A DNA stretch of 64,000 nucleotides, taken from a virus (Duplodnaviria; Heunggongvirae; Uroviricota; Caudoviricetes). Shown one piece after another: positions 1,458 through 27,540 of this stretch. Under the pieces are notes generated by a model. The model did no database searches and was not told the DNA's origin. It was given only the letters and a program-made list of their open reading frames with translations. The DNA is taken from the IMG/VR virus record IMGVR_UViG_3300026512_000004, positions 20,653-84,652 of that record; one strand, given 5' to 3'. The translations under genes and the position numbers were made by a program. The stretch's first letter is position 1; each line of letters begins with the position of its first letter.

Positions 1458-1754
1458 ATGTCTGAACTCTTCTTAACACGTGAACAGCGTTTTAACATTG
1501 TGCAAAAAACAGCACCTTCGATACTTGACACTTACGGATACCAAATAAGTAACATTGATCGTGAACACAGTGTTATCGTCTTTTTTCGTGAAACACCGGT
1601 AAAATTTGAGACCGATAAAGAACGTGACGACTATGTGACTAAGATATCAAGTCAATTGTATCAAGCTTATTGTAAAGAGGTTGGAGGTAAAGATGCTACG
1701 TTAATATTGAGTGTCGAAGTAGATGGTCCAAAGCTGGAGATTAAAGTGTTATGA
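1458..1754 (+). CDS. hypothetical protein
   Basis: 98-aa ORF, overlaps the downstream start. Confidence 0.4.
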   Translation: MSELFLTREQRFNIVQKTAPSILDTYGYQISNIDREHSVIVFFRETPVKFETDKERDDYVTKISSQLYQAYCKEVGGKDATLILSVEVDGPKLEIKVL

Positions 1755-2413
1755 TCAAAGCGTTTAAAGGAACATCTACAGTTGATTATCCGGATAAGCT
1801 AGCTTCCGTTGTCTTTACAGGTGGATGTAATTGGCGTTGTCCTTTTTGTTACAACATTGATTTAGTTTTACCTGAAAGATTGAAACAATTATCCGATATA
1901 CCTGAAAATGAAATTATTAGTCAACTTAAACGACGCCAAGGATTTATACATGGTGTTGTCATAACTGGTGGTGAACCTACTATTTGGGGTGATCGTTTAA
2001 TCAGTTTTATTAAACGTGTTAGAAAAGAAACGAATTTACTTATCAAACTAGATACAAATGGTAGCAATCCAGATGTCGTACAAGAATTGCTTCCGTACCT
2101 AGATTACATAGCAATTGATTTTAAAACTGGTCCTGAAAAATACCATATACTCGGTGGTAATTTCGAGACAGTACAGAAAACGTTTTCTATTGTCCAAGAT
2201 GTGCCGCATGAAATACGTCTAACTCTTGCTATGATTACTGAAGAAGACCTAGAACAAATGCTACCGTACTTAGAAAATAAAGTAATTGCAGTACAAAAGT
2301 TTTTTCACGGTGTTAATACTTTAGACCCTAATTTTACACCTAGTAAGATATCGCCAGAATACGTTTGTGAACGAGTAGGCCAAGTAGCGAAAAAACTATT
2401 AAGGAGGTTGTAA
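1751..2413 (+). CDS. nrdG: radical SAM protein, anaerobic ribonucleotide reductase activase-like
   Basis: N-terminal GGCNWRCPFCYN (CxxxCxxC followed by YN as in NrdG: GCxHxCxGCYN); glycine-rich VVITGGEPT SAM-binding motif. Confidence 0.55.
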   Translation: MIKAFKGTSTVDYPDKLASVVFTGGCNWRCPFCYNIDLVLPERLKQLSDIPENEIISQLKRRQGFIHGVVITGGEPTIWGDRLISFIKRVRKETNLLIKLDTNGSNPDVVQELLPYLDYIAIDFKTGPEKYHILGGNFETVQKTFSIVQDVPHEIRLTLAMITEEDLEQMLPYLENKVIAVQKFFHGVNTLDPNFTPSKISPEYVCERVGQVAKKLLRRL

Positions 2414-3198: not shown

Positions 3199-4074
3199 GT
3201 GATCAAAGAGCGAATTCTTCAACACTTACAGTCCATTTCTACACTTCTCAAACAAGTTCGACCACACGAATATCAGCTCTTCTGTCCCTACTGTAACGAC
3301 GCTCACAGAAAGCCAAATCCCCGCCATGGACATTTATACGTTTTAATCGATACTGATACACACACCTATTTATTTCATTGTTTTCGCTGTGATGCGTCTG
3401 GTCATTTGACCAAACTTTTGCTAGACACAGGATTTACTGACCAAGAAGTACTTCAAGTTTTAAAGAAGAAAGGTAAGTTCACTGTCTCAACTAGATTAGT
3501 TTATCCAACTGAAAAGCGTTTTAAAACGAATTACAGTGTTTTCAGACAAACAATTCAGTATTTCTATCAAAGAACTGGTGTCCACCAATATTGGTATTTT
3601 GGTGTTCAGCCGATTGGACGTCAAGAACTATATGCACTAAACTTCTTTAATAGTCTTGGAATCCACGTGTGTACTCGTGAAATTAAAAAGAGACGATTTC
3701 ATAAATACGGCAGTTATTACTTCTTCCAAGAGCCGCATGAGATTATTTCAAGAAGTATAGTAATATGTGAGGGTCCATTTGATGCTATCAACGCAAAACT
3801 CTACCATTTTAGAGACAATTTTGTATTAGCGGCTTTAGGCAAAGCATCTTTCATTTCGTGTTTTGAATGGGTACTACAGACATTCTATTGTTACTTAAAA
3901 CCAGGAACAACAGTTAAATACGTGTTGGACTCTGATGTTAAACGTTGGAAACATTTAATACGTTATACACAACAATTATTTGACATTTATAATATTGAAG
4001 GACACGTAGAGATATATAGAAGTGAAAAAGACGACATAGCTGATTATGGGCTGCTAGAGAGACTTTACGGATAG
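3199..4074 (+). CDS. DNA primase (DnaG-type zinc finger + Toprim)
   Basis: CPYCNDAH...HCFRCDASGH resembles DnaG CPFH...HCFGCGAGG zinc-binding region; VICEGPFDAI Toprim-like EGxxD; GTG start with poor SD so the start is uncertain. Confidence 0.5.
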   Translation: MIKERILQHLQSISTLLKQVRPHEYQLFCPYCNDAHRKPNPRHGHLYVLIDTDTHTYLFHCFRCDASGHLTKLLLDTGFTDQEVLQVLKKKGKFTVSTRLVYPTEKRFKTNYSVFRQTIQYFYQRTGVHQYWYFGVQPIGRQELYALNFFNSLGIHVCTREIKKRRFHKYGSYYFFQEPHEIISRSIVICEGPFDAINAKLYHFRDNFVLAALGKASFISCFEWVLQTFYCYLKPGTTVKYVLDSDVKRWKHLIRYTQQLFDIYNIEGHVEIYRSEKDDIADYGLLERLYG

Positions 4075-6916: not shown

Positions 6917-7204
6917 ATGGTAAGTGTTAGTTCTAAAGTTACCCGTGCATTAACTAGTAGACTTGGTGATGGTAGAACAGTTGATAAGAATATCTACAAT
7001 TTAGTCCATGGTACACTTAGAGAATTGCTTAATATCAAAAACAAATCAAGCGAAGATATTACTGCAGCCAAAGTAGTAATGTTACGTCATAATGGATTTA
7101 TGCTACACATTACCTGGAAAGATGGAAGTACTTCAAGAATCCCATTTGCAATTGATCTTGAAAGAGAACCCGTATCTTTTAAGTACAAATGGACTAATGC
7201 ATAG
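6917..7204 (+). CDS. hypothetical protein
   Basis: 95 aa; preceded by AAACTAGTTCAAAGGAGGG RBS motif. Confidence 0.45.
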   Translation: MVSVSSKVTRALTSRLGDGRTVDKNIYNLVHGTLRELLNIKNKSSEDITAAKVVMLRHNGFMLHITWKDGSTSRIPFAIDLEREPVSFKYKWTNA

Positions 7205-7334
7205 TTAACTATAGGTAAATCTTAAACTCAAGAAGACACTGTGGTGGCAACATTACACTCGGGGATACTGTTCTTTTTGTTCTTTTCTGTAAACGAGTTT
7301 CTGCACAACATTAAATTCGATAAAGGTGTTCATT

Positions 7335-10300
7335 ATGGAGAGGTTTGTCCGAAAACGCAAAGGAACTATTGTACCATTTGATCGTAATCGTATTCAAACA
7401 GCTATCGAAAAAGCATTTAATGCAACTGGTATTAAAGATGACAGAACCGTAGCGAAGGCAACAGACATCGTAGTTGACAAACTTGAACGCGATTTCTTTA
7501 GGTATGGTTCAATACCTCATGTAGAACAAATACAAGATATCGTAGAAAACACGTTGATGACATTGGGATGTACCGAAGTTGCTAAAGCTTACATACTTTA
7601 CCGTGAGAAAAGAAGACAAATACGCGAGCTGAGAGACGCCGAAGTTGATGCTATTAGTCTAATTGATGATTACTTACAACAAGTAGATTGGCGTGTAAGA
7701 GAGAACTCCAATATGACTTATAGTTTACAAGGATTGAATTTTCATATTTCTTCGTCTATTGTAGCAAGATATTGGTTACACAGGATATACCCAGAACGTG
7801 TTCGTTTGGCACATATAAATGGTGATGTACATGTACACGATCTCAATAGCTTGTCTTGTTATTGTAATGGATGGGATTTATATGACTTACTGCTACGCGG
7901 ATTTGGTGGAGTACACGGTAAGGTAGAAAGTAAACCGCCTAAACATTTTAGAACAGCTCTTGGTCAGCTAGTGAACTTTATGTATACTCTACAAGGTGAA
8001 TGTTATTCGGCTGATACTCAAGTGTTGACAGAAAGCGGCTGGAAATACTTTTGGAATGTGAGCATAAATGACAGAATCTATACGCTTAATCCAGAAACCC
8101 GGCAAATTGAACTCCAGAAACCAATAAAACTTTATGAATTTAATTATGACGGCGAACTCTACCATTTTGAAGGAGATGGATTTGACCTGTTGGTAACTCC
8201 AAACCACAATATGTTGGTTTGTGATGATTCACGTCGTCTTACATTTATCAAAGCTCATGAATTTGGACACGAACACAGTATTTTATGTTGTACAAATGGG
8301 GAAATAGATAAACAGTCTTACAGTAAAGCGTCCATTATTGAAAAAGTACCTTACAAAGGCAAAGTCTATTGTTTAGAAGTGCCTAACCATACACTTTGTG
8401 TTAGAAGAAATGGGAAAATTTGTTGGTGTGGTAATTCTGCCGGAGCGGTTGCCGTCTCCAATATAGATACACTTTTGGCTCCGTTTATCCGTTACGATGG
8501 TCTTAATTACGAGCAAGTTAAACAAGCAATACAAGAATTTATTTTCAACATGAATGTACCTACGCGTGTTGGCTTCCAAACCCCCTTTACTAATACCACT
8601 CATGACTTAGTTCCGCCCCCGACACTTAAGGACAACGCTGTTATCATTGGTGGTGAACCGCAAGATGCAACATACGGTGAATTTCAGGAAGAGATGAATA
8701 TGTTTAATCGTGCATTTTTCGAAGTAATGGCAGAAGGCGATGCAAAGGGCCGTCCATTTTCATTTCCAATACCGACTATCAACATAACTAGAGATTTTGA
8801 CTTTAACAATCCCAATTTAGACCCTTTGTGGGAAGCAACTAGACGTTTTGGTACTCCTTATTGGGCAAATTATGTTAACTCTGATATGAAACCTGAAGAT
8901 GCCAGAAGTATGTGTCTTGCACCTTCAACATGTGTGATGATTAAAGACGATAAAGACGAAATACATGTGGGACGTATTTATGAACTCTATAACAAGTTTG
9001 CTGGATGTAGCATAGAAGTACCTTATAATGGTCAATGGGTTCCTGCGAGATTTGTAAAGGTACCTTACAAACAACCGTTCTATCGTGTTAAGTTGAGTAA
9101 TGGCATCAGTCTTGATTTCACTGCCGATCATAAACATGTCACTATAGATGGAATAAAGTTAACTACTGAATTACAGCCTGGTGATTGTCTCGCATGGTCA
9201 ACGGAAATAACACCGTGGAATGGTCAAGTAGGTGATTTTGTTTATGGTTATAAACTAGCAAAAGAAAAAGGGTGTCTTAAACATTGGTTTAAACTGAGTA
9301 CAGATGCACTAGTTGGATTTCTTACATATATACTTACTGAGAACAATGGAGCTTATGGTACTTATGATAAAAATCAGGCATTACGTGTTGGATATATTGC
9401 GAATGTGTTCGGTTATTCGTATAAAATAGTCAGGATAAAAATACGTAGAGAGAATGGTGAAGAAAAAGACTTCTGGGTAACACGTATCTATAGGAACGAT
9501 AGATATGTCTTTGAAGATAAAGACCGATTTGGCTACGTGAAAATTGTAAGTATAGAGAAAATACGTAATAGATCCGGCAAAGCGTATTGTTTTGAAGTGT
9601 ATACAAATGACCACCTGTTTGAGTTACCTTGTGGACTAATAACACATAATTGTTGTAGATTACGACTTGACAATAGGGAACTGCGCAAGAGAGGAGGCGG
9701 ACTATTTGCATCTGCACCATTAACTGGGTCTATTAACGTTGTGACTATCAACATGCCGAGGATTGCTTATTTGTCTCATAGTGAAAAGGACTTCTTTGAA
9801 CGTCTTGAACAAGTTATGGAAATTGCAAAGTTGTGTCACGAAGTTAAACGCAAAGTTCTAGAAGATTTCACGGAAAAAGGTTTGTATCCGTATTCGTGTG
9901 TTTATCTAGATACTATTAAACAACGTACTGGATCCTACTGGTCAAACCACTTTTCCACTATTGGTATAGTTGGTATGCACGAAGCCTGTTTGAATTTTCT
10001 CGGAAAACCTATTTATGATCCGGAGGCAAAGAAATGGTGTATTAAAGTATTAGAGTTTATGCGTGAAAAAATATTGGAGTTTCAGGAAGAGACCGGCAAT
10101 CTGTACAACTTAGAGGCAACGCCTGCAGAATCCTGTTGTTATAGACTTGCAAAAATAGATAAGAAAAAATATCCTGGAATTATTACGTCTGGAACAGAGG
10201 AAGCACCTTATTATACCAATTCAGTACACTTACCTGTTGGCTATACGGATGATATATTTGAGATATTAGAGCACCAGGATGACCTTATGGTTCTTTTTAC

Positions 10301-10535
10301 CGGAGGATGTGTTGTACATTTGTTCGTAGGTGAGGAGATACCCAGTGTTGAAGTAGTTAAGGAGTTAGTGAAATCAATCTGTTGGAATTTTAGATTGCCA
10401 TACTTCTCTATAACACCTACATTTTCAATATGTCCAATACATGGATATATACCTGGTAAACATGAGTTTTGTCCTTATCCCCATACGGAGAAACAGTTAG
10501 CTAAATGGGGTGTTGAAGTTGAAATCGATGAGTAG
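7335..10535 (+). CDS. nrdD: anaerobic ribonucleoside-triphosphate reductase (class III, NrdD) interrupted by two inteins
   Basis: N-terminal ATP-cone (VRKRKGTIVPFDRNRIQTAIEKA). Motifs shared with the T4/E. coli NrdD sequence as recalled from memory: HVHDL...CYCNGWDL, INMPRIAYLS, EATPAESCCYRLAKID, FTGGCVVHL. Likely start is the ATG at 7335 (SD AAAGGTG); the ORF track starts at GTG 7326. Confidence 0.8.
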   Translation: MERFVRKRKGTIVPFDRNRIQTAIEKAFNATGIKDDRTVAKATDIVVDKLERDFFRYGSIPHVEQIQDIVENTLMTLGCTEVAKAYILYREKRRQIRELRDAEVDAISLIDDYLQQVDWRVRENSNMTYSLQGLNFHISSSIVARYWLHRIYPERVRLAHINGDVHVHDLNSLSCYCNGWDLYDLLLRGFGGVHGKVESKPPKHFRTALGQLVNFMYTLQGECYSADTQVLTESGWKYFWNVSINDRIYTLNPETRQIELQKPIKLYEFNYDGELYHFEGDGFDLLVTPNHNMLVCDDSRRLTFIKAHEFGHEHSILCCTNGEIDKQSYSKASIIEKVPYKGKVYCLEVPNHTLCVRRNGKICWCGNSAGAVAVSNIDTLLAPFIRYDGLNYEQVKQAIQEFIFNMNVPTRVGFQTPFTNTTHDLVPPPTLKDNAVIIGGEPQDATYGEFQEEMNMFNRAFFEVMAEGDAKGRPFSFPIPTINITRDFDFNNPNLDPLWEATRRFGTPYWANYVNSDMKPEDARSMCLAPSTCVMIKDDKDEIHVGRIYELYNKFAGCSIEVPYNGQWVPARFVKVPYKQPFYRVKLSNGISLDFTADHKHVTIDGIKLTTELQPGDCLAWSTEITPWNGQVGDFVYGYKLAKEKGCLKHWFKLSTDALVGFLTYILTENNGAYGTYDKNQALRVGYIANVFGYSYKIVRIKIRRENGEEKDFWVTRIYRNDRYVFEDKDRFGYVKIVSIEKIRNRSGKAYCFEVYTNDHLFELPCGLITHNCCRLRLDNRELRKRGGGLFASAPLTGSINVVTINMPRIAYLSHSEKDFFERLEQVMEIAKLCHEVKRKVLEDFTEKGLYPYSCVYLDTIKQRTGSYWSNHFSTIGIVGMHEACLNFLGKPIYDPEAKKWCIKVLEFMREKILEFQEETGNLYNLEATPAESCCYRLAKIDKKKYPGIITSGTEEAPYYTNSVHLPVGYTDDIFEILEHQDDLMVLFTGGCVVHLFVGEEIPSVEVVKELVKSICWNFRLPYFSITPTFSICPIHGYIPGKHEFCPYPHTEKQLAKWGVEVEIDE
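8001..8435 (+). mobile_element. mini-intein 1 inside nrdD (about 145 aa)
   Basis: Block A CYSADTQVL directly after extein YTLQGE; block B LLVTPNHNML; block F VYCLEVPNHTLCVRRNG; C-terminal boundary ambiguous (...KICWCGN/S at 8433-8435 or ...KICW/C at 8426), no canonical HN. Confidence 0.55.
8913..9650 (+). mobile_element. intein 2 inside nrdD (246 aa)
   Basis: Block A CLAPSTCVMIKDD; block B ISLDFTADHKHVT; blocks F/G YCFEVYTNDHLFELPCGLITHN followed by +1 Cys (CCRLRL); possible degenerate endonuclease insert (LVGFLTYILTENNGAYG). Confidence 0.7.
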
Positions 10536-10600
10536 TTTCATCAGGGAACACTTTGTATAATTGTTTGATACTTGTTTAAAGACAGCGGAGGTATAGATAT

Positions 10601-10759
10601 ATGTCAAAGAGACGTGTCAAATTGATACCATGCGAGGTATACAGTAGAGTGGTTGGATACTACAGACCAGTATCACATTGGAACACTGGTAAACAGCAGG
10701 AATTTAAGGAAAGGAAGACTGTGAAATTAAGCACGTATAAGAAAATCGGAGTAAGCTAG
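10601..10759 (+). CDS. stand-alone glycyl-radical domain peptide of NrdD (52 aa)
   Basis: MSKRRVKLIPCEVYSRVVGYYRPVSHWNTGKQQEFKERKTV matches the NrdD C-terminal RxxGYxxxxxxxNxGKxxExxxR glycyl-radical motif; own SD GCGGAGGT 8 nt upstream; different frame from nrdD, which stops at 10535; below the ORF-track size cut-off. Confidence 0.65.
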   Translation: MSKRRVKLIPCEVYSRVVGYYRPVSHWNTGKQQEFKERKTVKLSTYKKIGVS

Positions 10760-10772
10760 TCATGAAAATCCG

Positions 10773-10792
10773 GGTCCATCTGGGCCCGGGTA
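10773..10792 (+). other. GC-rich hairpin CCGGGTCCATCTGGGCCCGG
   Basis: Imperfect inverted repeat after the nrdD glycyl-radical ORF; related to the hairpin at 3129; no T-run. Confidence 0.3.
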
Positions 10793-10816
10793 TCATCTAG
10801 TTGCGAGGCTAAGCTT

Positions 10817-11815
10817 ATGATTACAGCTCAAGACGTTGCATGGTTTGAAAAGTACCGTCCAAACACCATAGACGATATGTTATTCGAATCCGAGGAACAA
10901 GAACGATTATGCCGTAATATAATAGAACAGGGACCTAAAGGCAACATATTACTGTACGGACCACCTGGTACGGGTAAAACTACTTTTGCACGCATAATTA
11001 TCAGAACCTTTATTAAGTCTGAACATGACATATTTAAATGCTCCAAAAGGTCAGTAACAGAGATTGACGAGGTTATAAAATGGATACCACGTGTACCTTT
11101 TCAATCCCCCTTCAAAATTGTATACATCGAGGAAATTGATAAACTCAGTAGAGAAGCACAGACAACACTTAAAGATGGTGCAATGGAACGTAACATTGTA
11201 CACACAAAGTTTATTGCTACTACTAACTGGGTGGAGAAGTTAGATGTTGCCTTAGTATCTCGTTTTGATACAAAACTACATTTCAGTGGTAAATACGATA
11301 AAGCGAAACTGAAAGTATTCCTTGGGAAGGTTCTACAGAACGAAAATGCTAAATATGATGAACAGAAACTAGAGGAGTTTATCAGTCGTCTTGGTGAAAA
11401 AGTTGACATGCGTTCCTTATTATCCAACTTGCAGATAGCGTATATTAAAGGTAATGGTAGTATCAATTTCGATGAGATACAGGCTGTAACTTGCTTAGAA
11501 GACGATGTAGTTAATTTAATACTTAAGATAGTTAAAAAAGTTAGCGATTTACCCCACAGTGATAGATACAGATGTTGTTTATATCCCATGTCATCTCCAA
11601 TAATGAATGAGTATTCTGAACTGGTAACAAGACTTAGCGAGAATCTGCAATACGAGACTATTTTCAGTGAACTGTATGACAGATTAACTTTGTTCCCATT
11701 GAAAGTCATAGTTGGTAAATACCAAAATGATATGTACAACAAACGACATTTAGACTTGCATCTGTTGGCATGTTTATACGAGTTATTAAGATGTTTGACA
11801 AGTTTGTTCGAATAA
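10817..11815 (+). CDS. clamp-loader AAA+ ATPase (RFC small subunit / T4 gp44-like)
   Basis: LLYGPPGTGKTTFAR Walker A; IVYIEEIDKLSREAQTTL RFC-box-like Walker B/sensor; VSRFD SRC-like motif. Confidence 0.7.
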   Translation: MITAQDVAWFEKYRPNTIDDMLFESEEQERLCRNIIEQGPKGNILLYGPPGTGKTTFARIIIRTFIKSEHDIFKCSKRSVTEIDEVIKWIPRVPFQSPFKIVYIEEIDKLSREAQTTLKDGAMERNIVHTKFIATTNWVEKLDVALVSRFDTKLHFSGKYDKAKLKVFLGKVLQNENAKYDEQKLEEFISRLGEKVDMRSLLSNLQIAYIKGNGSINFDEIQAVTCLEDDVVNLILKIVKKVSDLPHSDRYRCCLYPMSSPIMNEYSELVTRLSENLQYETIFSELYDRLTLFPLKVIVGKYQNDMYNKRHLDLHLLACLYELLRCLTSLFE

Positions 11816-14499: not shown

Positions 14500-14526
14500 G
14501 CAAACGTGTCAAGAAAGGGGGCTTAT

Positions 14527-15216
14527 ATGCAACTTGAGGATGTGGTCCAGTTTATACCTAAAACTATTCAAGGAGAGGGTAAACGTGCTGGACATATTTG
14601 CACACTTTTACGGTTCAAGAAGTGTTTACGTTCCTGTCCATTTTGCGACACCACAGAGTTAATGAAACAGGAATGTTTACCCATCACTATTGACCGGGTT
14701 GCTGATGCAGTCAAGGATACGCATATGTTATTGATAACAGGTGGTGAACCATTAATCTACTTACCACAAATAGCACTATTAGTTCAGTATATTTCAATTT
14801 CACATTCAATTAAGGTTGATTTAGAAACTGCTGGACCGAAGAACAATAAAGCAGGTAAACTCAGTCTAACACAAATACACAAGTATTTACGTATTATAAA
14901 TCAGAACACAGATTTAAATATTGTATTTAGTCCAAAAATATTTAACGATAGAGACCTATGTGAAGCGTGTGATTTTCTACGTATCATTAAAGACTTCAAA
15001 TTTACCGTAAAAGTACTTGTGCCATTTACCAGTGACCATGTGAAGTATTTCTTGTATCATTATAAGACTATGTATTCAGAAGAAAATTTATACTTTATGC
15101 CCATGGGTCAAACGAAAGAAGAACTGGAGAAGAATATACCCGCCACATTAGAAACTGTTTACGAATATGGTGGCAATTTTACGCATAGACTACATTTACT
15201 AACTAATATGCCCTAA
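14527..15216 (+). CDS. queE: 7-carboxy-7-deazaguanine synthase (QueE-like radical SAM)
   Basis: IPKTIQGEGKRAGHICTLLRFKKCLRSCPFCDT closely parallels E. coli QueE FQTLQGEG...GCPVGCAWCDT; ITGGEPL motif; ATG 14527 preferred (SD AAAGGGGG) over GTG 14506. Confidence 0.75.
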   Translation: MQLEDVVQFIPKTIQGEGKRAGHICTLLRFKKCLRSCPFCDTTELMKQECLPITIDRVADAVKDTHMLLITGGEPLIYLPQIALLVQYISISHSIKVDLETAGPKNNKAGKLSLTQIHKYLRIINQNTDLNIVFSPKIFNDRDLCEACDFLRIIKDFKFTVKVLVPFTSDHVKYFLYHYKTMYSEENLYFMPMGQTKEELEKNIPATLETVYEYGGNFTHRLHLLTNMP

Positions 15217-15217
15217 A

Positions 15218-16513
15218 ATGAAGGCTATAAAACGTAAGAAACAGTCTGCTAGAACATACGAACTTCTACGACAAGTTACACAATATCTCACACGTCCCAA
15301 TTTACGCGAACGTCTTGATAATGTATTAGCAATAAATAAAGAACTAAAATTTGTAACACATAAACGTATTTGGTTGTATTTTCTGAAACGACCACAAATT
15401 ATCAAATGGGTTAACGAGTACATTAATGACAAGTATATTCATTATCAGCCAACAGAGGCATTAAAGACAGCTGCTTTTGTATGCGATCAACATAGACTAA
15501 CAAGCAACGATTTACATTATGCTCGCACACCAGAAATAGATGACACGATAGAAGAATTAAGACTACAGTTGACATCCGGACTTGAACTGAGGAACTCCTC
15601 TGATTTTTCAACGTTACAGTATTTACTCAATAATGTTGTCAAAGTTAAAACATTAGAGGAATTTATACAAGAAATACTACAAGATGTGGAAAATTGCAGG
15701 TCTAAATGTCCACTTGGCCAATTACAACGTCCCGTTGTTGTGTTAGATGGCAATATTGAATATGTTGGACCTGTAGATGTGATGTTTATTGGCTTGAATC
15801 CTGGTACTGAAGAGGCTAAACAGGGTAAACCGTTTGTTGGTCTTACCGGTATTAAACTGCGTGAATTTGTGGAAAATAACTTAGGTCATTTGAAGTACAT
15901 TTTTACTAATTGTATCTTGTGTTCTACAAGGAATGAAAGCGAAATCCCGGAGATACAGAAAGTAATAACACTATGTAGACAACATGTTACTAAGATTGTC
16001 CAAACATTTCAACCAAAGATAATCGTATTAGTTGGCGATAAAGCGTGTTCATCTTTTGGTATCACTGGTAAAATAAGTCAGATATCTGGAACTCTTATTA
16101 ATGATAAATACTTTCCATTGATACACCCTTCTGCTGTATCTAGGAACCCTCATTGGAAAGATTTGTGGGAAAGAAGTCTGGATAACTTGTTAATGGTTTT
16201 GGGTATTGAGAAAAAGAACAAGGTAGAGATTAAAGGCGGCAGTACAGTTACTTGGGATGATGTACGTGAAATGCAGTTAACCTTGTTCGACCTAAAGATA
16301 TTAGAAGGTCAAACTGCTATTTACATATTCTTGGATAACGAGGGTAAAAAGTATTACTTAGTTGAAGAACCGAAGCACAGGATATATATTAAGCGTGGTG
16401 AATTGCCGTTTCTAGCCTTAGTTGAAGATGAGTTCGATCAGTATGTTGATTTAACACCACGAGAGAAACATTTTCTTGTTGCCGAACTAAGAAAACGTAT
16501 TGCGCAGATTTGA
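15218..16513 (+). CDS. UDG-superfamily (family-4-like, Fe-S) domain protein with N- and C-terminal extensions
   Basis: Residues about 160-330 align motif by motif with family-4 UDGs. Fe-S Cys motifs: CRSKCPL, NCILC, LCRQH, ACSSF. Motif A: VMFIGLNPGTEEAKQGKPFVGLTGIKL, versus GEGPGeeEdxxGrPFvGkaG. Motif B: FPLIHPSAVSRNP. The catalytic-motif residue is Asn (GLNPG), as in MUG/TDG. The start overlaps the queE stop. Confidence 0.7.
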   Translation: MKAIKRKKQSARTYELLRQVTQYLTRPNLRERLDNVLAINKELKFVTHKRIWLYFLKRPQIIKWVNEYINDKYIHYQPTEALKTAAFVCDQHRLTSNDLHYARTPEIDDTIEELRLQLTSGLELRNSSDFSTLQYLLNNVVKVKTLEEFIQEILQDVENCRSKCPLGQLQRPVVVLDGNIEYVGPVDVMFIGLNPGTEEAKQGKPFVGLTGIKLREFVENNLGHLKYIFTNCILCSTRNESEIPEIQKVITLCRQHVTKIVQTFQPKIIVLVGDKACSSFGITGKISQISGTLINDKYFPLIHPSAVSRNPHWKDLWERSLDNLLMVLGIEKKNKVEIKGGSTVTWDDVREMQLTLFDLKILEGQTAIYIFLDNEGKKYYLVEEPKHRIYIKRGELPFLALVEDEFDQYVDLTPREKHFLVAELRKRIAQI

Positions 16514-20313: not shown

Positions 20314-20670
20314 ATGCGTAAACTGCTTGGTTTACTGACACTGGGATTCACAATGTTCGCATTTACAGCATGTGGTGGTGATCTTTGTCACAACAAACAG
20401 GTACAAGAAAAGGCAAAAGAGACATATGCTATTTATAGCAAAGAATTATTGTCTGCACTGGGGTATGATGTTTACACGGTTGATCAGATCATAGACATGT
20501 TGGACATTACTAAAGTCGTGAAAAGCAAAAAAGTTGGTAAAAATGAACAAATTTGCACTGTCGTTATTGAAGATGTAAGTGGTAGAAAAGCGAATTATAG
20601 TTTTAGAGTTACGGATAGAAACGGTCACTATAAAATAGACATTTTGGACATTGTGCCAATTGAGAAATAA
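20314..20670 (+). CDS. lipoprotein (candidate superinfection-exclusion/surface protein)
   Basis: MRKLLGLLTLGFTMFAFTACGG signal peptide + lipobox; SD AAAGGAGGT 5 nt upstream of ATG 20314. Confidence 0.55.
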   Translation: MRKLLGLLTLGFTMFAFTACGGDLCHNKQVQEKAKETYAIYSKELLSALGYDVYTVDQIIDMLDITKVVKSKKVGKNEQICTVVIEDVSGRKANYSFRVTDRNGHYKIDILDIVPIEK

Positions 20671-22907: not shown

Positions 22908-23777
22908 TTGGTCATGAACATACCAGCAGACTTTTACACACGAGTCGAAGATCCACGCTTTCTACATTATGTTCTATACGGTGATACTGACAGTTTGTTT
23001 TTGCATGTACCTTTTGTACACTACGAAACGACTAAAGAAGCAATTGAGAAAGCACAAAAAATCGCAAAGCAAATTAACGACAGAATCCAAGCGTACTTAA
23101 ATGTTGAAATGCTACCTAAAATGGGTGTCGACCCTAAATATAATTTTACTGACTTTAAAACAGAGCTAGTAATTAAGTCGTTAATGCTTCTCGAGGTCAA
23201 GAAAAATTATGCATTGAAAATAATTGCTGAAAAAGACGAGGTATTTTCTAGTCCAAAGATTAAGTACACGGGATTACCTATTGTTAAAGCAGATGTTGCT
23301 GCCTTAGCTAAACAATTCTTAAAAGAACTTGTAGACAACATTGTCTTAAATGAAGAAATCCCTCTGGAACAGAAACTGGATCATTGTGAACGTATACGTG
23401 AAGTGTATAAAAAACGTACAAAAGAAGCGTGCGATAACTTCCAAATACACCTAATAGGCAAACCTGCTAAGATGTCTAATACGGAAAGTAATGCTCATCA
23501 CATACAGGCAATGAAACGTTGGAACACGTGGTGGAGTAATGACTTCAAGTTAGGTACATCTGGTTATTTAGTGTACACAGATAGAGGTGAACTTGCGGTA
23601 CCATTTTGGTATGACGAACACATGGTCAAGAGAGCATTTGAAAAAATGCAACTGAAACTCGATATTAATGCTATTTGGAACAAATTTATCTACATCACGA
23701 TTACACAACGTATTATCAAACTATGTGCAAAATATTGCCAAGATCCGCTAAAACGTGTAAACTATGACGTACAATGA
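22908..23777 (+). CDS. family-B DNA polymerase, C-terminal fragment (palm motif C + thumb)
   Basis: YGDTDSLFL (motif C) 24 aa from N-terminus, KKNYALK (KKRY motif), GLPIVKAD; begins right after a terminator; TTG 22908 or ATG 22914. Confidence 0.8.
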   Translation: MVMNIPADFYTRVEDPRFLHYVLYGDTDSLFLHVPFVHYETTKEAIEKAQKIAKQINDRIQAYLNVEMLPKMGVDPKYNFTDFKTELVIKSLMLLEVKKNYALKIIAEKDEVFSSPKIKYTGLPIVKADVAALAKQFLKELVDNIVLNEEIPLEQKLDHCERIREVYKKRTKEACDNFQIHLIGKPAKMSNTESNAHHIQAMKRWNTWWSNDFKLGTSGYLVYTDRGELAVPFWYDEHMVKRAFEKMQLKLDINAIWNKFIYITITQRIIKLCAKYCQDPLKRVNYDVQ

Positions 23778-25707
23778 GTTAATACGTGAGATACGTGAAG
23801 GTCGATTAAACTACTACAATATCTACAACGCAATTTCAACACACACTTACTTAACCACAAAGTACTATAACGAATTCACACATGATACAATCGATAAACC
23901 ACAAAAAGTATCTGTTTTGTATTTAGATATTGAGGTTTATATACCAAGTAAAAACAGAAGCCCTGATCCGCAAAAAGATCCTATTTGTGCTTTCTCTATT
24001 GTCTACGAAAGAAACGCCTATCTTTTTGGATTAATACCACCTGGTAAAGCACGTGAAGAATTACCTAGTAAAGAAGAGTTGGAAGAGTTAGTCGCAAGAC
24101 ATGTTGGTAAAAAGTATAGTATAGAGGTAAGATACTACGATAATGACGCAGATTTACTAAAAGGTGTTTGGCGAAAGATACGTGAATTAGACCCCTGTTT
24201 GTTGAGTGGATGGAACATAGACGGATTTGACATACCTTATATTATTGAAAGGATGCAAGTGTTATTACCAAATGAATGGCAGCGGGTAATTTCACGTTTT
24301 GGACGTGTCACTAAAGAACAGGGATATTGGCAGATTCCAGAATATTCACGATATGACTTATATTACTTCTACAAGCCTAGAGATGAAGGTGGTATGAATT
24401 ATGGATCAAAAGAACCGAGTTACACTTTAGATTTCATTGCTAGTAAACTGCTTAATGTTACTAAAGTTCACCATGAAACTGACTTACATACAATGTTTGA
24501 AGAGAAGACACGCGAGTTATTTGTCTATAACGTAGTGGATACTATCCTCTGCCAAATGTTAGATGAAAAGCTCAAATTTTGGGATTTGCACAATACAGTA
24601 AGACGTAAAATGGGTGTAGGATTTTCGGCATCATTACGTGGTTGGTCTGTTATGTATGAGGCTTATGTGATTAAAACATTGAAAGACAAGAAAATTAGAT
24701 TTGGTTATCTGGAAGAACTAGATTTTGAAGTCGACCAGTATAGTAAACAAGATGTGAGAAAAGTAACGCGTCGATATATGGGTGCTTACGTCAAAGAACC
24801 TCGTGAGGGTATTTATATTGATGGATTATTGATGGATTTAGATGCTTCACGTCTATATCCGTCTATGATTATGCAGTTTAACATATCGTTTGATACTTTG
24901 TACGGCATAATTATAGATCCTGTATGTTATAACGCAATGACTTCTCTAAGTCAAATGATGAACTCTACTGGTGAAAGAAGACAACAAATTGCTGCGAAAA
25001 TTAAACTAGCTATTGAGAAGACATTTGAACAGATTTTCGGAACCACTTCAAAAGGCAAAACCTCTTACCGTAAGGAAGATCGTGCTTTTCTGACAGTTAT
25101 TTCTGCTATTGTGGATAGACTCTGTGAGAGTGGATTATCGTTTCAAGAAATATGCACACCTACAACACCAAAAGGTTATGTGTATTTGAGGCGATACTTT
25201 ATACCACTTTTAGATATGATTAAGTATGTAAAATATAGTACTCTTGAGTATAATACATTCGCATACGATTACGTATTCGATGAACCTAAGGTGAACAGCG
25301 TATACGTTCTTATTAACTGTGATAGTAAACCGCTAAAAATAGACAAATGGAGCGTCGAATATCTGAAGAAAAGGTTGGACGAAGACTTAGTTTTAACATG
25401 TACTGGTTGTTTGTTTTATAAACATGACGTTAAACGCGGATTGTTCTTCGAGTTCTTACAAGAATTGGGGAAAATGCGTAAAGATTTCGAAAGGAAAGCA
25501 TTACAAGTCGACGACGAAGAACTTAAAAACATATACAGAAGAAATGCAAAAACGTGTAAGGTTATTATGAACACGTGTTACGGGTTGTACGGACTACCAA
25601 CGTTTACATTTTCTAATCAGTGGTTAGCGTCTACAATTACATTACAAGGTAGAATAAGTGTTAAATTAGCACAGTTAATTGCGGATCAAGTTATCAGTGA
25701 ACTATGA
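23764..25707 (+). CDS. family-B DNA polymerase, N-terminal fragment (3'-5' exonuclease + palm motifs A/B)
   Basis: Exo I VLYLDIEV, Exo II SGWNIDGFDIPYI, Exo III YNVVDT; motif A DLDASRLYPSMIM; motif B KVIMNTCYGLYG...TITLQGR; ORF ends about 20 aa after motif B; overlaps upstream ORF by 14 nt. Confidence 0.85.
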   Translation: MTYNELIREIREGRLNYYNIYNAISTHTYLTTKYYNEFTHDTIDKPQKVSVLYLDIEVYIPSKNRSPDPQKDPICAFSIVYERNAYLFGLIPPGKAREELPSKEELEELVARHVGKKYSIEVRYYDNDADLLKGVWRKIRELDPCLLSGWNIDGFDIPYIIERMQVLLPNEWQRVISRFGRVTKEQGYWQIPEYSRYDLYYFYKPRDEGGMNYGSKEPSYTLDFIASKLLNVTKVHHETDLHTMFEEKTRELFVYNVVDTILCQMLDEKLKFWDLHNTVRRKMGVGFSASLRGWSVMYEAYVIKTLKDKKIRFGYLEELDFEVDQYSKQDVRKVTRRYMGAYVKEPREGIYIDGLLMDLDASRLYPSMIMQFNISFDTLYGIIIDPVCYNAMTSLSQMMNSTGERRQQIAAKIKLAIEKTFEQIFGTTSKGKTSYRKEDRAFLTVISAIVDRLCESGLSFQEICTPTTPKGYVYLRRYFIPLLDMIKYVKYSTLEYNTFAYDYVFDEPKVNSVYVLINCDSKPLKIDKWSVEYLKKRLDEDLVLTCTGCLFYKHDVKRGLFFEFLQELGKMRKDFERKALQVDDEELKNIYRRNAKTCKVIMNTCYGLYGLPTFTFSNQWLASTITLQGRISVKLAQLIADQVISEL

Positions 25708-26787: not shown

Positions 26788-27540
26788 ATGGAGAAAGTAC
26801 GTTGCGGAAAATGTGGTAGATATGTTCCTAAGAGTTCTTGTCTTCCGTATCGGACTAAAAGAGGCAAATATGCAGGCAGACCTAGTTGGATCTGTTTTGA
26901 GTGTTACATTACATGCGAAGATGATATAGAACTTCTGACACCAGATTGGAATAAGATACAAAATAAGATACAAGAACTTATAGATATTTTACATGAAGAA
27001 TTAGGTTGGTTTAATAGTGAAGAATTAAAAAATACCGCTAGAAGAATTGCTAATTTCTACAAAGAATGGGCAAGTAATCAATCGTTTAAGTTTACCACGT
27101 TTGAACGTGATTTAGTTGAAAGTAAATTAGACCAGCTAATAGTATATCGGGATATCAAGTTCTTTAGTATGTGTAGTCATCATATGTTGCCATTCTATGG
27201 TGTTTGTCATGTTGCTTACTTACCCCGTGACGAAGTTGCTGGAGCATCTAAAATTGCCAGAATGGTAGTTGCTAAAGCCAGTAAACCACAAATACAGGAA
27301 AAACTGACAGATGAGATTTGTAGAGAATTGTTCGATACACTTAAAGCTAAGTTCGTTATGGTAGTAATGGAGGCGACACATTTATGTATGGTTTGTAGAG
27401 GGATAAAACAGTATGGCAGTAAGATGGTAACATCTTCTATTAGATACGATAAAGAAGCACAGGAGTCAGGTGAGATAGATTGGAAAACCTTGAAAGAGGA
27501 AAGTTTAATTTTGTTCAGGGGATTGAGACAAGACTTTTAA
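26788..27540 (+). CDS. folE: GTP cyclohydrolase I (FolE) with N-terminal Cys4 zinc-ribbon extension
   Basis: FFSMCSHHMLPFYGVCHVAYLPRDEVAGASKIARMV...QIQEKLTDEI matches FolE CEHHLVPF...GLSKLARIV...QVQERLT; N-terminal CGKCGR...CFEC. Confidence 0.8.
   Translation: MEKVRCGKCGRYVPKSSCLPYRTKRGKYAGRPSWICFECYITCEDDIELLTPDWNKIQNKIQELIDILHEELGWFNSEELKNTARRIANFYKEWASNQSFKFTTFERDLVESKLDQLIVYRDIKFFSMCSHHMLPFYGVCHVAYLPRDEVAGASKIARMVVAKASKPQIQEKLTDEICRELFDTLKAKFVMVVMEATHLCMVCRGIKQYGSKMVTSSIRYDKEAQESGEIDWKTLKEESLILFRGLRQDF

Follow-up and report, generated by a model that had tools for sequence, protein, structure and literature searches.

The class III ribonucleotide reductase NrdD, as known from T4, Thermotoga maritima, and Prevotella copri (PDB 1H79, 4U3E/4COI, 8P23), is a single chain in which a barrel with finger-loop cysteines and an ATP-cone is followed by a C-terminal metal knuckle, with a CxxC...CxxC or CxxH...CxxC zinc site, and then by the RVxGY loop that carries the glycyl radical, and it works together with the activase NrdG. 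Here, we describe an nrdD locus in 64,000 nucleotides (nt) of DNA from a virus of the Caudoviricetes (IMG/VR record IMGVR_UViG_3300026512_000004, positions 20,653 to 84,652; this whole stretch is referred to as the window). It shares with these one-piece enzymes the barrel, the finger-loop cysteines, the ATP-cone, NrdG, and the order of a putative metal knuckle followed by an RVxGY loop. Unlike in those enzymes, the phage core gene ends in a CxxH...CxxxH knuckle and a helix-strand tail, and the radical loop is encoded by a separate gene of only 52 codons.

The small gene product is most readily likened to GrcA/YfiD of E. coli and Y06I of T4, small stand-alone proteins that carry a glycyl-radical loop, are activated by the cognate radical S-adenosylmethionine (SAM) activase, and insert their loop into an enzyme body without an intact one; by analogy, the peptide described here may act in a similar way. 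The only validated spare parts for glycyl radical enzymes are two for pyruvate formate-lyase, one of them phage-encoded (PMC8683613). The same 2021 paper regarded spare parts for other glycyl radical enzymes as a possibility (PMC8683613), and a 2026 review of the superfamily mentions them solely for pyruvate formate-lyase. A first-pass annotation of the window, made from the sequence alone, had proposed the resemblance to GrcA, and it serves well as a working analogy, but the peptide would be an obligate subunit here rather than a spare, because no radical domain is present in the core itself. The peptide also belongs to the NrdD family (Pfam NRDD) and not to the Gly_radical family of GrcA (PF01228/IPR011140), would serve a ribonucleotide reductase, and has a mass of about 6 kDa compared with roughly 14 kDa. 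GrcA supplements an enzyme already equipped with a radical domain, whereas the peptide is the sole such domain in the window.

Ribonucleotide reductases of other classes offer a second kind of comparison. The class Ia NrdA of Aeromonas phage Aeh1 is split by the homing endonuclease gene mobE, and its two polypeptides reassemble. The locus in the window likewise has a phage ribonucleotide reductase large subunit in two polypeptides, but the Aeh1 split lies in the enzyme body, whereas here the two parts are separated at a domain boundary by a 65-nt spacer with no inserted gene, and the split appears to be ancient and shared with cellular lineages. The class II NrdJa/NrdJb of Pseudomonas aeruginosa also has its catalytic subunit in two adjacent genes, the small C-terminal piece bearing a zinc-finger or cysteine element that is needed for turnover (PMC9669993), but this enzyme is of another class, uses adenosylcobalamin, and has a small piece that delivers reducing equivalents and carries no radical. 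Neither NrdJa/NrdJb nor the Aeh1 enzyme splits off the radical-bearing element. In the open-access literature and on bioRxiv, we found neither a split class III reductase nor an autonomous NrdD-type peptide described, although an earlier account elsewhere may have escaped us.

Division of NrdD between two open reading frames

The features of the window on which the argument rests are the following.

7326 to 10535, plus strand: nrdD core, a class III ribonucleotide reductase body (Pfam NRDD, E 4.9e-162; ATP-cone, E 2.5e-23; NF006126, 955.8 bits)
10431 to 10484, plus strand: Cys/His knuckle CPIH-x9-CPYPH at the core end, in place of the CxxH...CxxC zinc-ribbon element of one-piece relatives
10485 to 10535, plus strand: clade-specific C-terminal tail of the core, TEKQLAKWGVEVEIDE, with the stop codon; a short helix and then a beta-strand are predicted
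10536 to 10600, plus strand: non-coding intercistronic spacer of 65 nt, with a ribosome-binding site, GGAGG, at 10587-10591, and divergent in the sister-strain contig L168
10601 to 10759, plus strand: glycyl-radical peptide gene, 52 amino acids (aa) (Pfam NRDD positions 533-560 of 562; TIGR02487 positions 551-580 of 581)
1751 to 2413, plus strand: nrdG, encoding a radical-SAM activase (TIGR02495 NrdG2, E 3.6e-46; the score of 157 bits exceeds the cut-off of 131)

The core open reading frame (ORF) ends in ...SICPIHGYIPGKHEFCPYPHTEKQLAKWGVEVEIDE, with a TAG stop codon at 10533-10535, and the 52-aa ORF, which translates as MSKRRVKLIPCEVYSRVVGYYRPVSHWNTGKQQEFKERKTVKLSTYKKIGVS, follows in a different frame, its ATG at 10601 standing 9 nt downstream of the GGAGG. 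Profile searches assign the 2 ORFs to successive parts of the same protein. The core reaches position 530 of the 562 in Pfam NRDD, and the peptide covers 533-560 with an E-value of 3.8e-10. In NCBIfam NF006126 (684 positions), the core reaches 652 and the peptide spans 651-682, and in a hidden Markov model (HMM) of 703 positions that we built from 38 one-piece NrdDs, the core spans 8-660 and the peptide 662-699 (E 1.6e-19). With both the custom HMM and NF006126, the NrdD profile is divided between the two ORFs without overlap or gap, and the homology of both to NrdD is far beyond chance. An RxxGY motif is absent from the core by inspection of the sequence and by profile searches, and the custom HMM found no second copy of the peptide segment in the window. 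The glycyl-radical segment of this phage's NrdD thus appears to be a separate, independently initiated small gene. This is what the first-pass annotation had claimed, down to a Shine-Dalgarno sequence of the small ORF's own, and its coordinates hold on re-reading. The partition of the profiles agrees with it, as do the comparative data below; neither Pfam nor the custom HMM detects in the core C-terminus the canonical glycyl-radical motif that it had named as one finding that would overturn its reading; and the profile search of the peptide that it had proposed returned NRDD, with Gly_radical unmatched.

Apart from the radical segment, the core has what is expected of NrdD. Its ATP-cone and barrel are present, its glycyl-radical domain is missing, and it stops at position 660 of the 703-position profile, so that the radical segment is not on the barrel's own polypeptide. 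It scores 955.8 bits against a cut-off of 548 for NF006126 and 540.9 bits against a cut-off of 26.2 for PF13597 (NRDD), and in a pairwise alignment from which the two inteins described below were removed, it is 69% identical to NrdD of Thermodesulfobacterium sp. TA1. The ORF opens at GTG 7326, but its true start is probably ATG 7335 (MERFVRKRKG...), where the Thermodesulfobacterium protein also begins in the alignment. Its putative metal site reads C-x2-H...C-x3-H in place of CxxC...CxxC or CxxH...CxxC, a pattern kept in 80 of the 120 closest homologs, and the knuckle may bind a metal. By every sequence test, the enzyme would be classed as an NrdD, except for its radical segment, which a second chain carries, and for the altered pattern of the fourth metal ligand. 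The translation of nrdG contains the cluster motif CNWRCPFC, and its product is expected to generate the glycyl radical on the peptide.

The peptide comprises all that ordinarily comes after the knuckle in NrdD: the strand VKLIPCEVY leads into the radical loop SRVVG19YYRP, which is followed by a short helix. Its N-terminus is basic (MSKRRVKLIP), and its C-terminal part is helical (GKQQEFKERK). The radical glycine is predicted to be Gly19 of RVVG19Y, encoded by the codon at 10655-10657. Eighteen positions are invariant in 25 stand-alone relatives, among them E12, Y14-Y20, R22, P23, W27, N28, G30, and K31. A database search with the peptide returned 541 relatives. The best 120 range in length from 43 to 86 aa, all have an NRDD domain, and they include proteins of Thermodesulfobacterium isolates and metagenome-assembled genomes, Thermosulfidibacter takaii, and archaea. 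When 1.84 billion cluster representatives were scanned exhaustively with a peptide profile in HMMER, 5027 matched at E up to 1e-3, and 149 of the 150 best were 49-106 aa long. With its own start, its own ribosome-binding site, and its short relatives, the peptide is a small stand-alone radical-loop protein in the sense in which GrcA is one. No family dedicated to it exists in PHROGs, Pfam, or NCBIfam: in PHROGs it matches only weakly, to the C-terminus of the full-length NrdD family, and a Pfam scan at E up to 1 returned only PF13597 NRDD and no Gly_radical PF01228. A PDB sequence search with the peptide gave no match at E up to 1.

Conservation of the split and the fate of simpler explanations

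Indels are possible in metagenomic assemblies, and such an error in sequencing or assembly, or else a nonsense mutation of recent date, might have truncated nrdD and left the small ORF behind as a leftover. The first-pass annotation had itself raised an indel at the junction as one possible refutation of its reading, and we find none. The independent ENA assembly L167 is identical to the window across the junction, and the Logan assembly L168, which represents a diverged sister strain, retains the same core stop and the same peptide start. Differences between the window and L168 amount to 1.3% in the core (9 synonymous and 3 non-synonymous changes), 0.6% in the peptide gene (1 synonymous change), and 1.5% in the next gene downstream, which is clamp-loader-like (13 synonymous and 1 non-synonymous), compared with 12.3% in the spacer, which indels of +1 and +4 nt lengthen from 65 nt in the window to 70 nt in L168. 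The spacer thus evolves as non-coding DNA, given this divergence and its indels against mainly synonymous change in the ORFs, and the same indels mean that the frame offset between core and peptide is not conserved even within this phage. The core appears to be under purifying selection. Mainly synonymous change in both ORFs argues against decay as well as artefact, as does the fact that the same layout, together with a conserved tail dedicated to it, recurs in dozens of taxa, among them Thermodesulfobacterium sp. TA1 with its complete genome. We regard the chance that the split is an artefact or a fresh lesion as practically negligible.

The TA1 genome (CP043908.1) is complete and comes from a cultured organism, and it has the same arrangement of core, spacer, and peptide. 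Its core of 686 aa has the conserved tail and ends in ...CPLPHTEEDLKKFGVEIE..., or, in fuller form, ...CPLPHTEEDLKKFGVEIELPVDLIQKFSIAQA; the spacer is 37 nt long and contains the ribosome-binding site AAGGAGGTG; and the peptide gene is an ORF of 58 aa that begins MKEKQKVKVVSCEVYSRVVGYFRPV... TA1 and about 75 homologs share the conserved tail motif H[TS]E..L..[FYW]G.E.E. When the 120 closest homologs of the C-terminal part of the window core were tallied, 75 had the knuckle plus tail, CP.HGY...C...H[TS]E..L..[FY]G..., and no radical domain. Among the 80 with the CxxxH tail, these 75 are without a radical domain and 5 are fused to the radical segment, whereas of the 34 with the canonical CxxC form, CP.HGY...CP.C(x4-5)CEVYSRVVGY, 30 possess the radical domain and 4 are without it. 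Split forms occur with at least two tail types, CxxxH and CxxC. The split correlates with the dedicated tail, and CxxxH-tail proteins without a radical domain would have no radical site unless a separate peptide supplied one.

In a scan of cellular loci that took one genome per species and the 80 best loci, 47 one-piece genes were found, together with 34 calls of a short peptide ORF beside the core. Some of the 34 calls are artefacts, either because a second peptide gene lies beside a complete NrdD (L021, L025, L027, and L070) or because a one-piece gene is broken by masked bases or a contig end (L035 and L083). Spacers in the 34 calls range from -14 to +124 nt, all three frame offsets (0, 1, and 2) occur, and every peptide ORF begins at an ATG of its own, in most cases preceded by a Shine-Dalgarno-like motif. 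At the cellular split loci, the genes run core, peptide, nrdG, with nrdG directly after the peptide. The two parts can also be further apart: in a Spirochaetota genome (L016, 2330-3397), the core and the peptide gene flank an IS630-like transposase, and at another locus (L171, 1752-4703) the ATP-cone, the barrel, nrdG, and a 46-aa radical peptide are 4 genes in that order. The claim of a split in this phage was therefore sound but is not specific to the phage, because the split is also present in TA1 and many other cellular loci. It appears to be the standard architecture of a large cellular NrdD clade, from which the phage seems to have inherited its two-gene NrdD, so that the split would not have arisen in the phage; the source was probably hosts related to Thermodesulfobacteria.

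These loci bear directly on whether programmed recoding, by frameshifting, read-through, or a hop of the T4 gene 60 type, might join the two ORFs into one NrdD. T4-type phages use translational bypassing, the two ORFs stand side by side on one strand, collinear with the one-piece protein, and GAG codons occur both just before the core stop (10530-10532) and in the peptide frame (10634-10636), as might suit a hop. Such joining would nevertheless have to contend with in-frame stops that close frames 0 and 2 inside the spacer, with the L168 indels that alter the frame relation, and with relatives that show every offset over spacers of -14 to +124 nt. Nor would it explain why each peptide ORF keeps an ATG of its own, or how the parts are joined across the intervening DNA of L016, of the viral contig L086 (1.37 kb with other ORFs), and of L171 (nrdG). 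The spacer RNA has no significant structure (fold z -0.25). We consider recoding very unlikely, and the two genes are independent cistrons.

The core gene is interrupted in another way, by two inteins that the first-pass annotation had left unmentioned.

8001 to 8435, plus strand: intein 1 in nrdD, delimited by alignment to the intein-free TA1 NrdD
8913 to 9650, plus strand: intein 2 in nrdD, delimited by the TA1 alignment and matched by Pfam Intein_splicing (aa 550-775) and TIGR01445 (aa 530-603)

With them, the core encodes 1069 aa, and the mature core has 678 aa. Intein 1 (aa 226-370) is a mini-intein of 145 aa that begins with C, ends in GN, and is followed by S, inserted between TLQGE and SAGA; its boundaries rest on the TA1 alignment, since the best of the two stretches that Pfam Intein_splicing matches on the core (aa 550-775) belongs to intein 2. 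Intein 2 (aa 530-775) has 246 aa, begins with C, ends in HN, and is followed by C, its N-terminal region is matched by TIGR01445, and it lies directly before the conserved Cys-Cys of SMCCRLRL. Its removal leaves ...EDARSM-CCRLRLDNREL, in the same register as TA1 SMCCRLRLDKREL, and the spliced core has the finger-loop cysteine, the loop being assigned following published NrdD structures.

The presence of two inteins in this very gene lends some color to the idea that the core and the peptide are themselves joined into one mature chain, through an intron or by trans-splicing of a split intein, and the nrdD of T4 carries a group I intron. Rfam, searched over 7000-11500 at E up to 10, returned no intron or other family, with one chance match to a long non-coding RNA, and the non-homologous stretch between the two parts, at about 140 nt and unstructured, is far below the size of a group I intron. 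Matches to the intein profiles are confined to the two internal inteins, and a 16-residue tail and a 10-residue leader are too short for intein halves and vary freely in length among relatives. Splicing of either kind is, to our minds, extremely improbable.

The region of the junction has few other signals. A scan of 10300-10900 for consensus promoters and terminators gave nothing above expectation; a TATAAT at 10556-10561 lacks a -35 partner and reads TACAAT in the sister strain. Directly 3' of the peptide gene lies one further element.

10768 to 10791, plus strand: G+C-rich hairpin with a 10-bp stem, found by folding 10755-10820

The fold of 10755-10820 has an energy of -26 kcal/mol (z -3.1). 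It lacks a T-run, and L167 and L168 have the identical stem. The hairpin probably marks the end of the transcript or stabilizes it.

A proposed model for docking and activation

How the two chains might come together is suggested by an AlphaFold model, from an alignment of 68 sequences, of P0187, a natural one-piece relative that is 73% identical to the C-terminal part of the window core and reads ...CPYEHSEENYSKYGIEVNSRKQIPCEVYSRVVGYF... across the junction. The mean predicted local distance difference test (pLDDT) score is 85, and the best structural matches are solved NrdD structures, with template modeling scores of 0.6-0.66. After the knuckle, the model has a helix (EENYSKY), a strand (IEV), a turn (NS), and a strand (RKQ), followed by the EVY strand, the glycine loop, and the helix GKQQEFK. 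The stop codon, spacer, and start codon of the window fall exactly in the predicted hairpin turn of IEV-NS-RKQ. On this model, the core would end with one arm of the hairpin (VEVEI) and the peptide would begin with the other (RVKLI), and the strand of the core tail is predicted to pair with the first strand of the peptide.

We consider it highly probable that the locus encodes a class III reductase of two polypeptides, in which the peptide docks on the core through complementation of a beta-hairpin and the phage NrdG serves as its activase. The peptide would be translated separately from its own ribosome-binding site and would assemble non-covalently with the core, the tail strand and the first peptide strand forming the two arms of a hairpin that is continuous in one-piece relatives. 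This docking would bring the glycine loop of the peptide into the barrel beside the finger-loop cysteine. NrdG would then abstract a hydrogen from Gly19, and the radical would shuttle from Gly19 to the cysteine and back in each turnover. A detachable radical domain is physically reasonable because in a one-piece NrdD this module is already mobile: cryo-electron microscopy and hydrogen-deuterium exchange of the Prevotella copri enzyme show that the radical domain can be fully disordered while the barrel remains folded (PMC11226230). In glycyl radical enzymes, oxygen cleaves the polypeptide at the radical glycine (PMC8683613, PMC12288474), so that even traces of it destroy them, and the GrcA/YfiD spare part of pyruvate formate-lyase is the only repair known. 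In a two-chain enzyme, such a cut would cost a 6-kDa peptide, which might be exchanged for another and activated again, rather than a whole enzyme of 80 kDa, and replaceability after oxygen damage is a plausible selective advantage.

Several considerations weigh against this assembly. The structural model is of a fused relative and of its C-terminal 275 residues only, rather than of the two actual chains, and its glycine loop is of low confidence (residues 248-252, pLDDT <50). The conserved tail occurs in one-piece form in 5 of the 80 close relatives that have it, so the tail alone does not enforce splitting. Production of the peptide, its binding to the core, and its carriage of the radical are all read from sequence. 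Finally, any benefit from exchange would require that both fragments of a cleaved peptide leave the barrel.

Solitary peptides, neighboring genes, and significance

In the window, the peptide is the only radical segment, but other genomes encode a radical peptide in addition to a complete NrdD. In 4 candidate-phyla genomes (Paceibacterota/Minisyncoccales), a second ORF of 92-99 aa stands between the gene for a complete one-piece NrdD and nrdG (second ORF at 3653-3937 in L021, 3640-3918 in L025, and 3637-3915 in both L027 and L070). The second ORF has a CxxC...CxxC ribbon of its own and an ETEVYSRVVGY loop, and this appears to be the layout closest to a true spare part.

Viral relatives show a further arrangement. 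In 69 of the 80 best IMG/VR contig matches (L084-L163), the peptide gene has neither an NrdD body nor nrdG in the roughly 5 kb to either side of it, the span to which this orphan status applies in longer contigs; IMG/VR may also include some misclassified DNA. The orphan ORFs are 41-263 codons long from stop to stop, mostly 50-100, and have their own start codons (for example, L095 4986-5138, L100 4440-4664, L105 5001-5192, and L133 4980-5123; also L003 5001-5183). Several have lineage-specific N-terminal extensions that are common within some groups. We retested their orphan status by searching all six-frame ORFs of each locus with the full-length profile of 38 NrdDs, and only profile positions from about 640 to 701, mostly from about 655 to 700, were matched. 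Their neighbors are phage genes for tail, portal-like, ligase, helicase, and lysis proteins. One 95.7-kb viral contig (L086) has both a core and a peptide gene, 1.37 kb apart with small ORFs between them.

Among the phage genomes deposited in INPHARED, we found no split or orphan copy, and no DNA similarity to 9700-11000 of the window. The few INPHARED protein matches of two peptides include two that we inspected, MT835493.1 and an Oceanotoga phage, both one-piece NrdDs, and matches in ANMV-1 and PhiF1 that are annotated as NrdD. Because of this lack of DNA similarity, the phage is without a close sequenced relative apart from the metagenomic contigs L167 and L168.

The orphans must act on host proteins, and with 69 of the 80 best viral relatives being orphan within 5 kb, one might suppose that the peptide of the window is likewise a separate regulator or decoy that titrates NrdG or plugs the host NrdD, the phage core being inactive or using another source of radicals. 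A core that has no radical domain and yet is under apparent purifying selection, in an operon with the peptide and nrdG, does not fit this supposition easily. The peptide also keeps every residue of the radical loop and its flanks that is conserved in one-piece enzymes, and the 75 of 120 closest homologs that have the tail would be left with no radical site if no separate peptide served them. A purely regulatory role seems unlikely, and we favor a peptide that serves the phage core as its radical subunit. Beyond this locus, we suggest tentatively, and with somewhat less than even confidence, that NrdD-type radical-glycine mini-proteins are widespread exchangeable radical cofactors, acting as subunits of split enzymes, as spares in the candidate phyla, and as viral orphans that re-arm or take over the host reductase.

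The rest of the window, which has a G+C content of 36.9% and in which no tRNA genes were found, contains several other genes of interest. A family-B DNA polymerase is apparently in two ORFs in permuted order, the upstream one of 289 aa (22908-23777) matching positions 220-413 of the 453 in Pfam DNA_pol_B, and the other, of 647 aa (23764-25707), containing an exonuclease domain and DNA_pol_B positions 93-197; this pair may be another enzyme encoded in pieces. The replication module also encodes a GTP cyclohydrolase I (26788-27540, E 1.9e-49), a protein with a weak radical-SAM match (14506-15216), and a 431-aa protein of the uracil-DNA-glycosylase superfamily (15218-16513). These three could belong to a base-modification pathway, for example, one for 7-deazaguanine.

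For annotation, the architecture described here calls for a correction, since the cores look truncated and the peptides are mostly labeled hypothetical or left unnamed. If NrdD-type mini-proteins are indeed exchangeable cofactors, the spare part principle would extend from pyruvate formate-lyase to the synthesis of DNA precursors, and the orphan peptides are candidates for a new type of viral auxiliary gene that acts on the host supply of deoxynucleoside triphosphates. The peptide would be a minimal substrate for recognition and activation by NrdG, and cultured Thermodesulfobacterium would offer a natural system in which to study the exchange of a radical cofactor on a ribonucleotide reductase. 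Across a whole microbial clade and a phage, the essential anaerobic ribonucleotide reductase would carry its radical loop on a separate chain of some 6 kDa.

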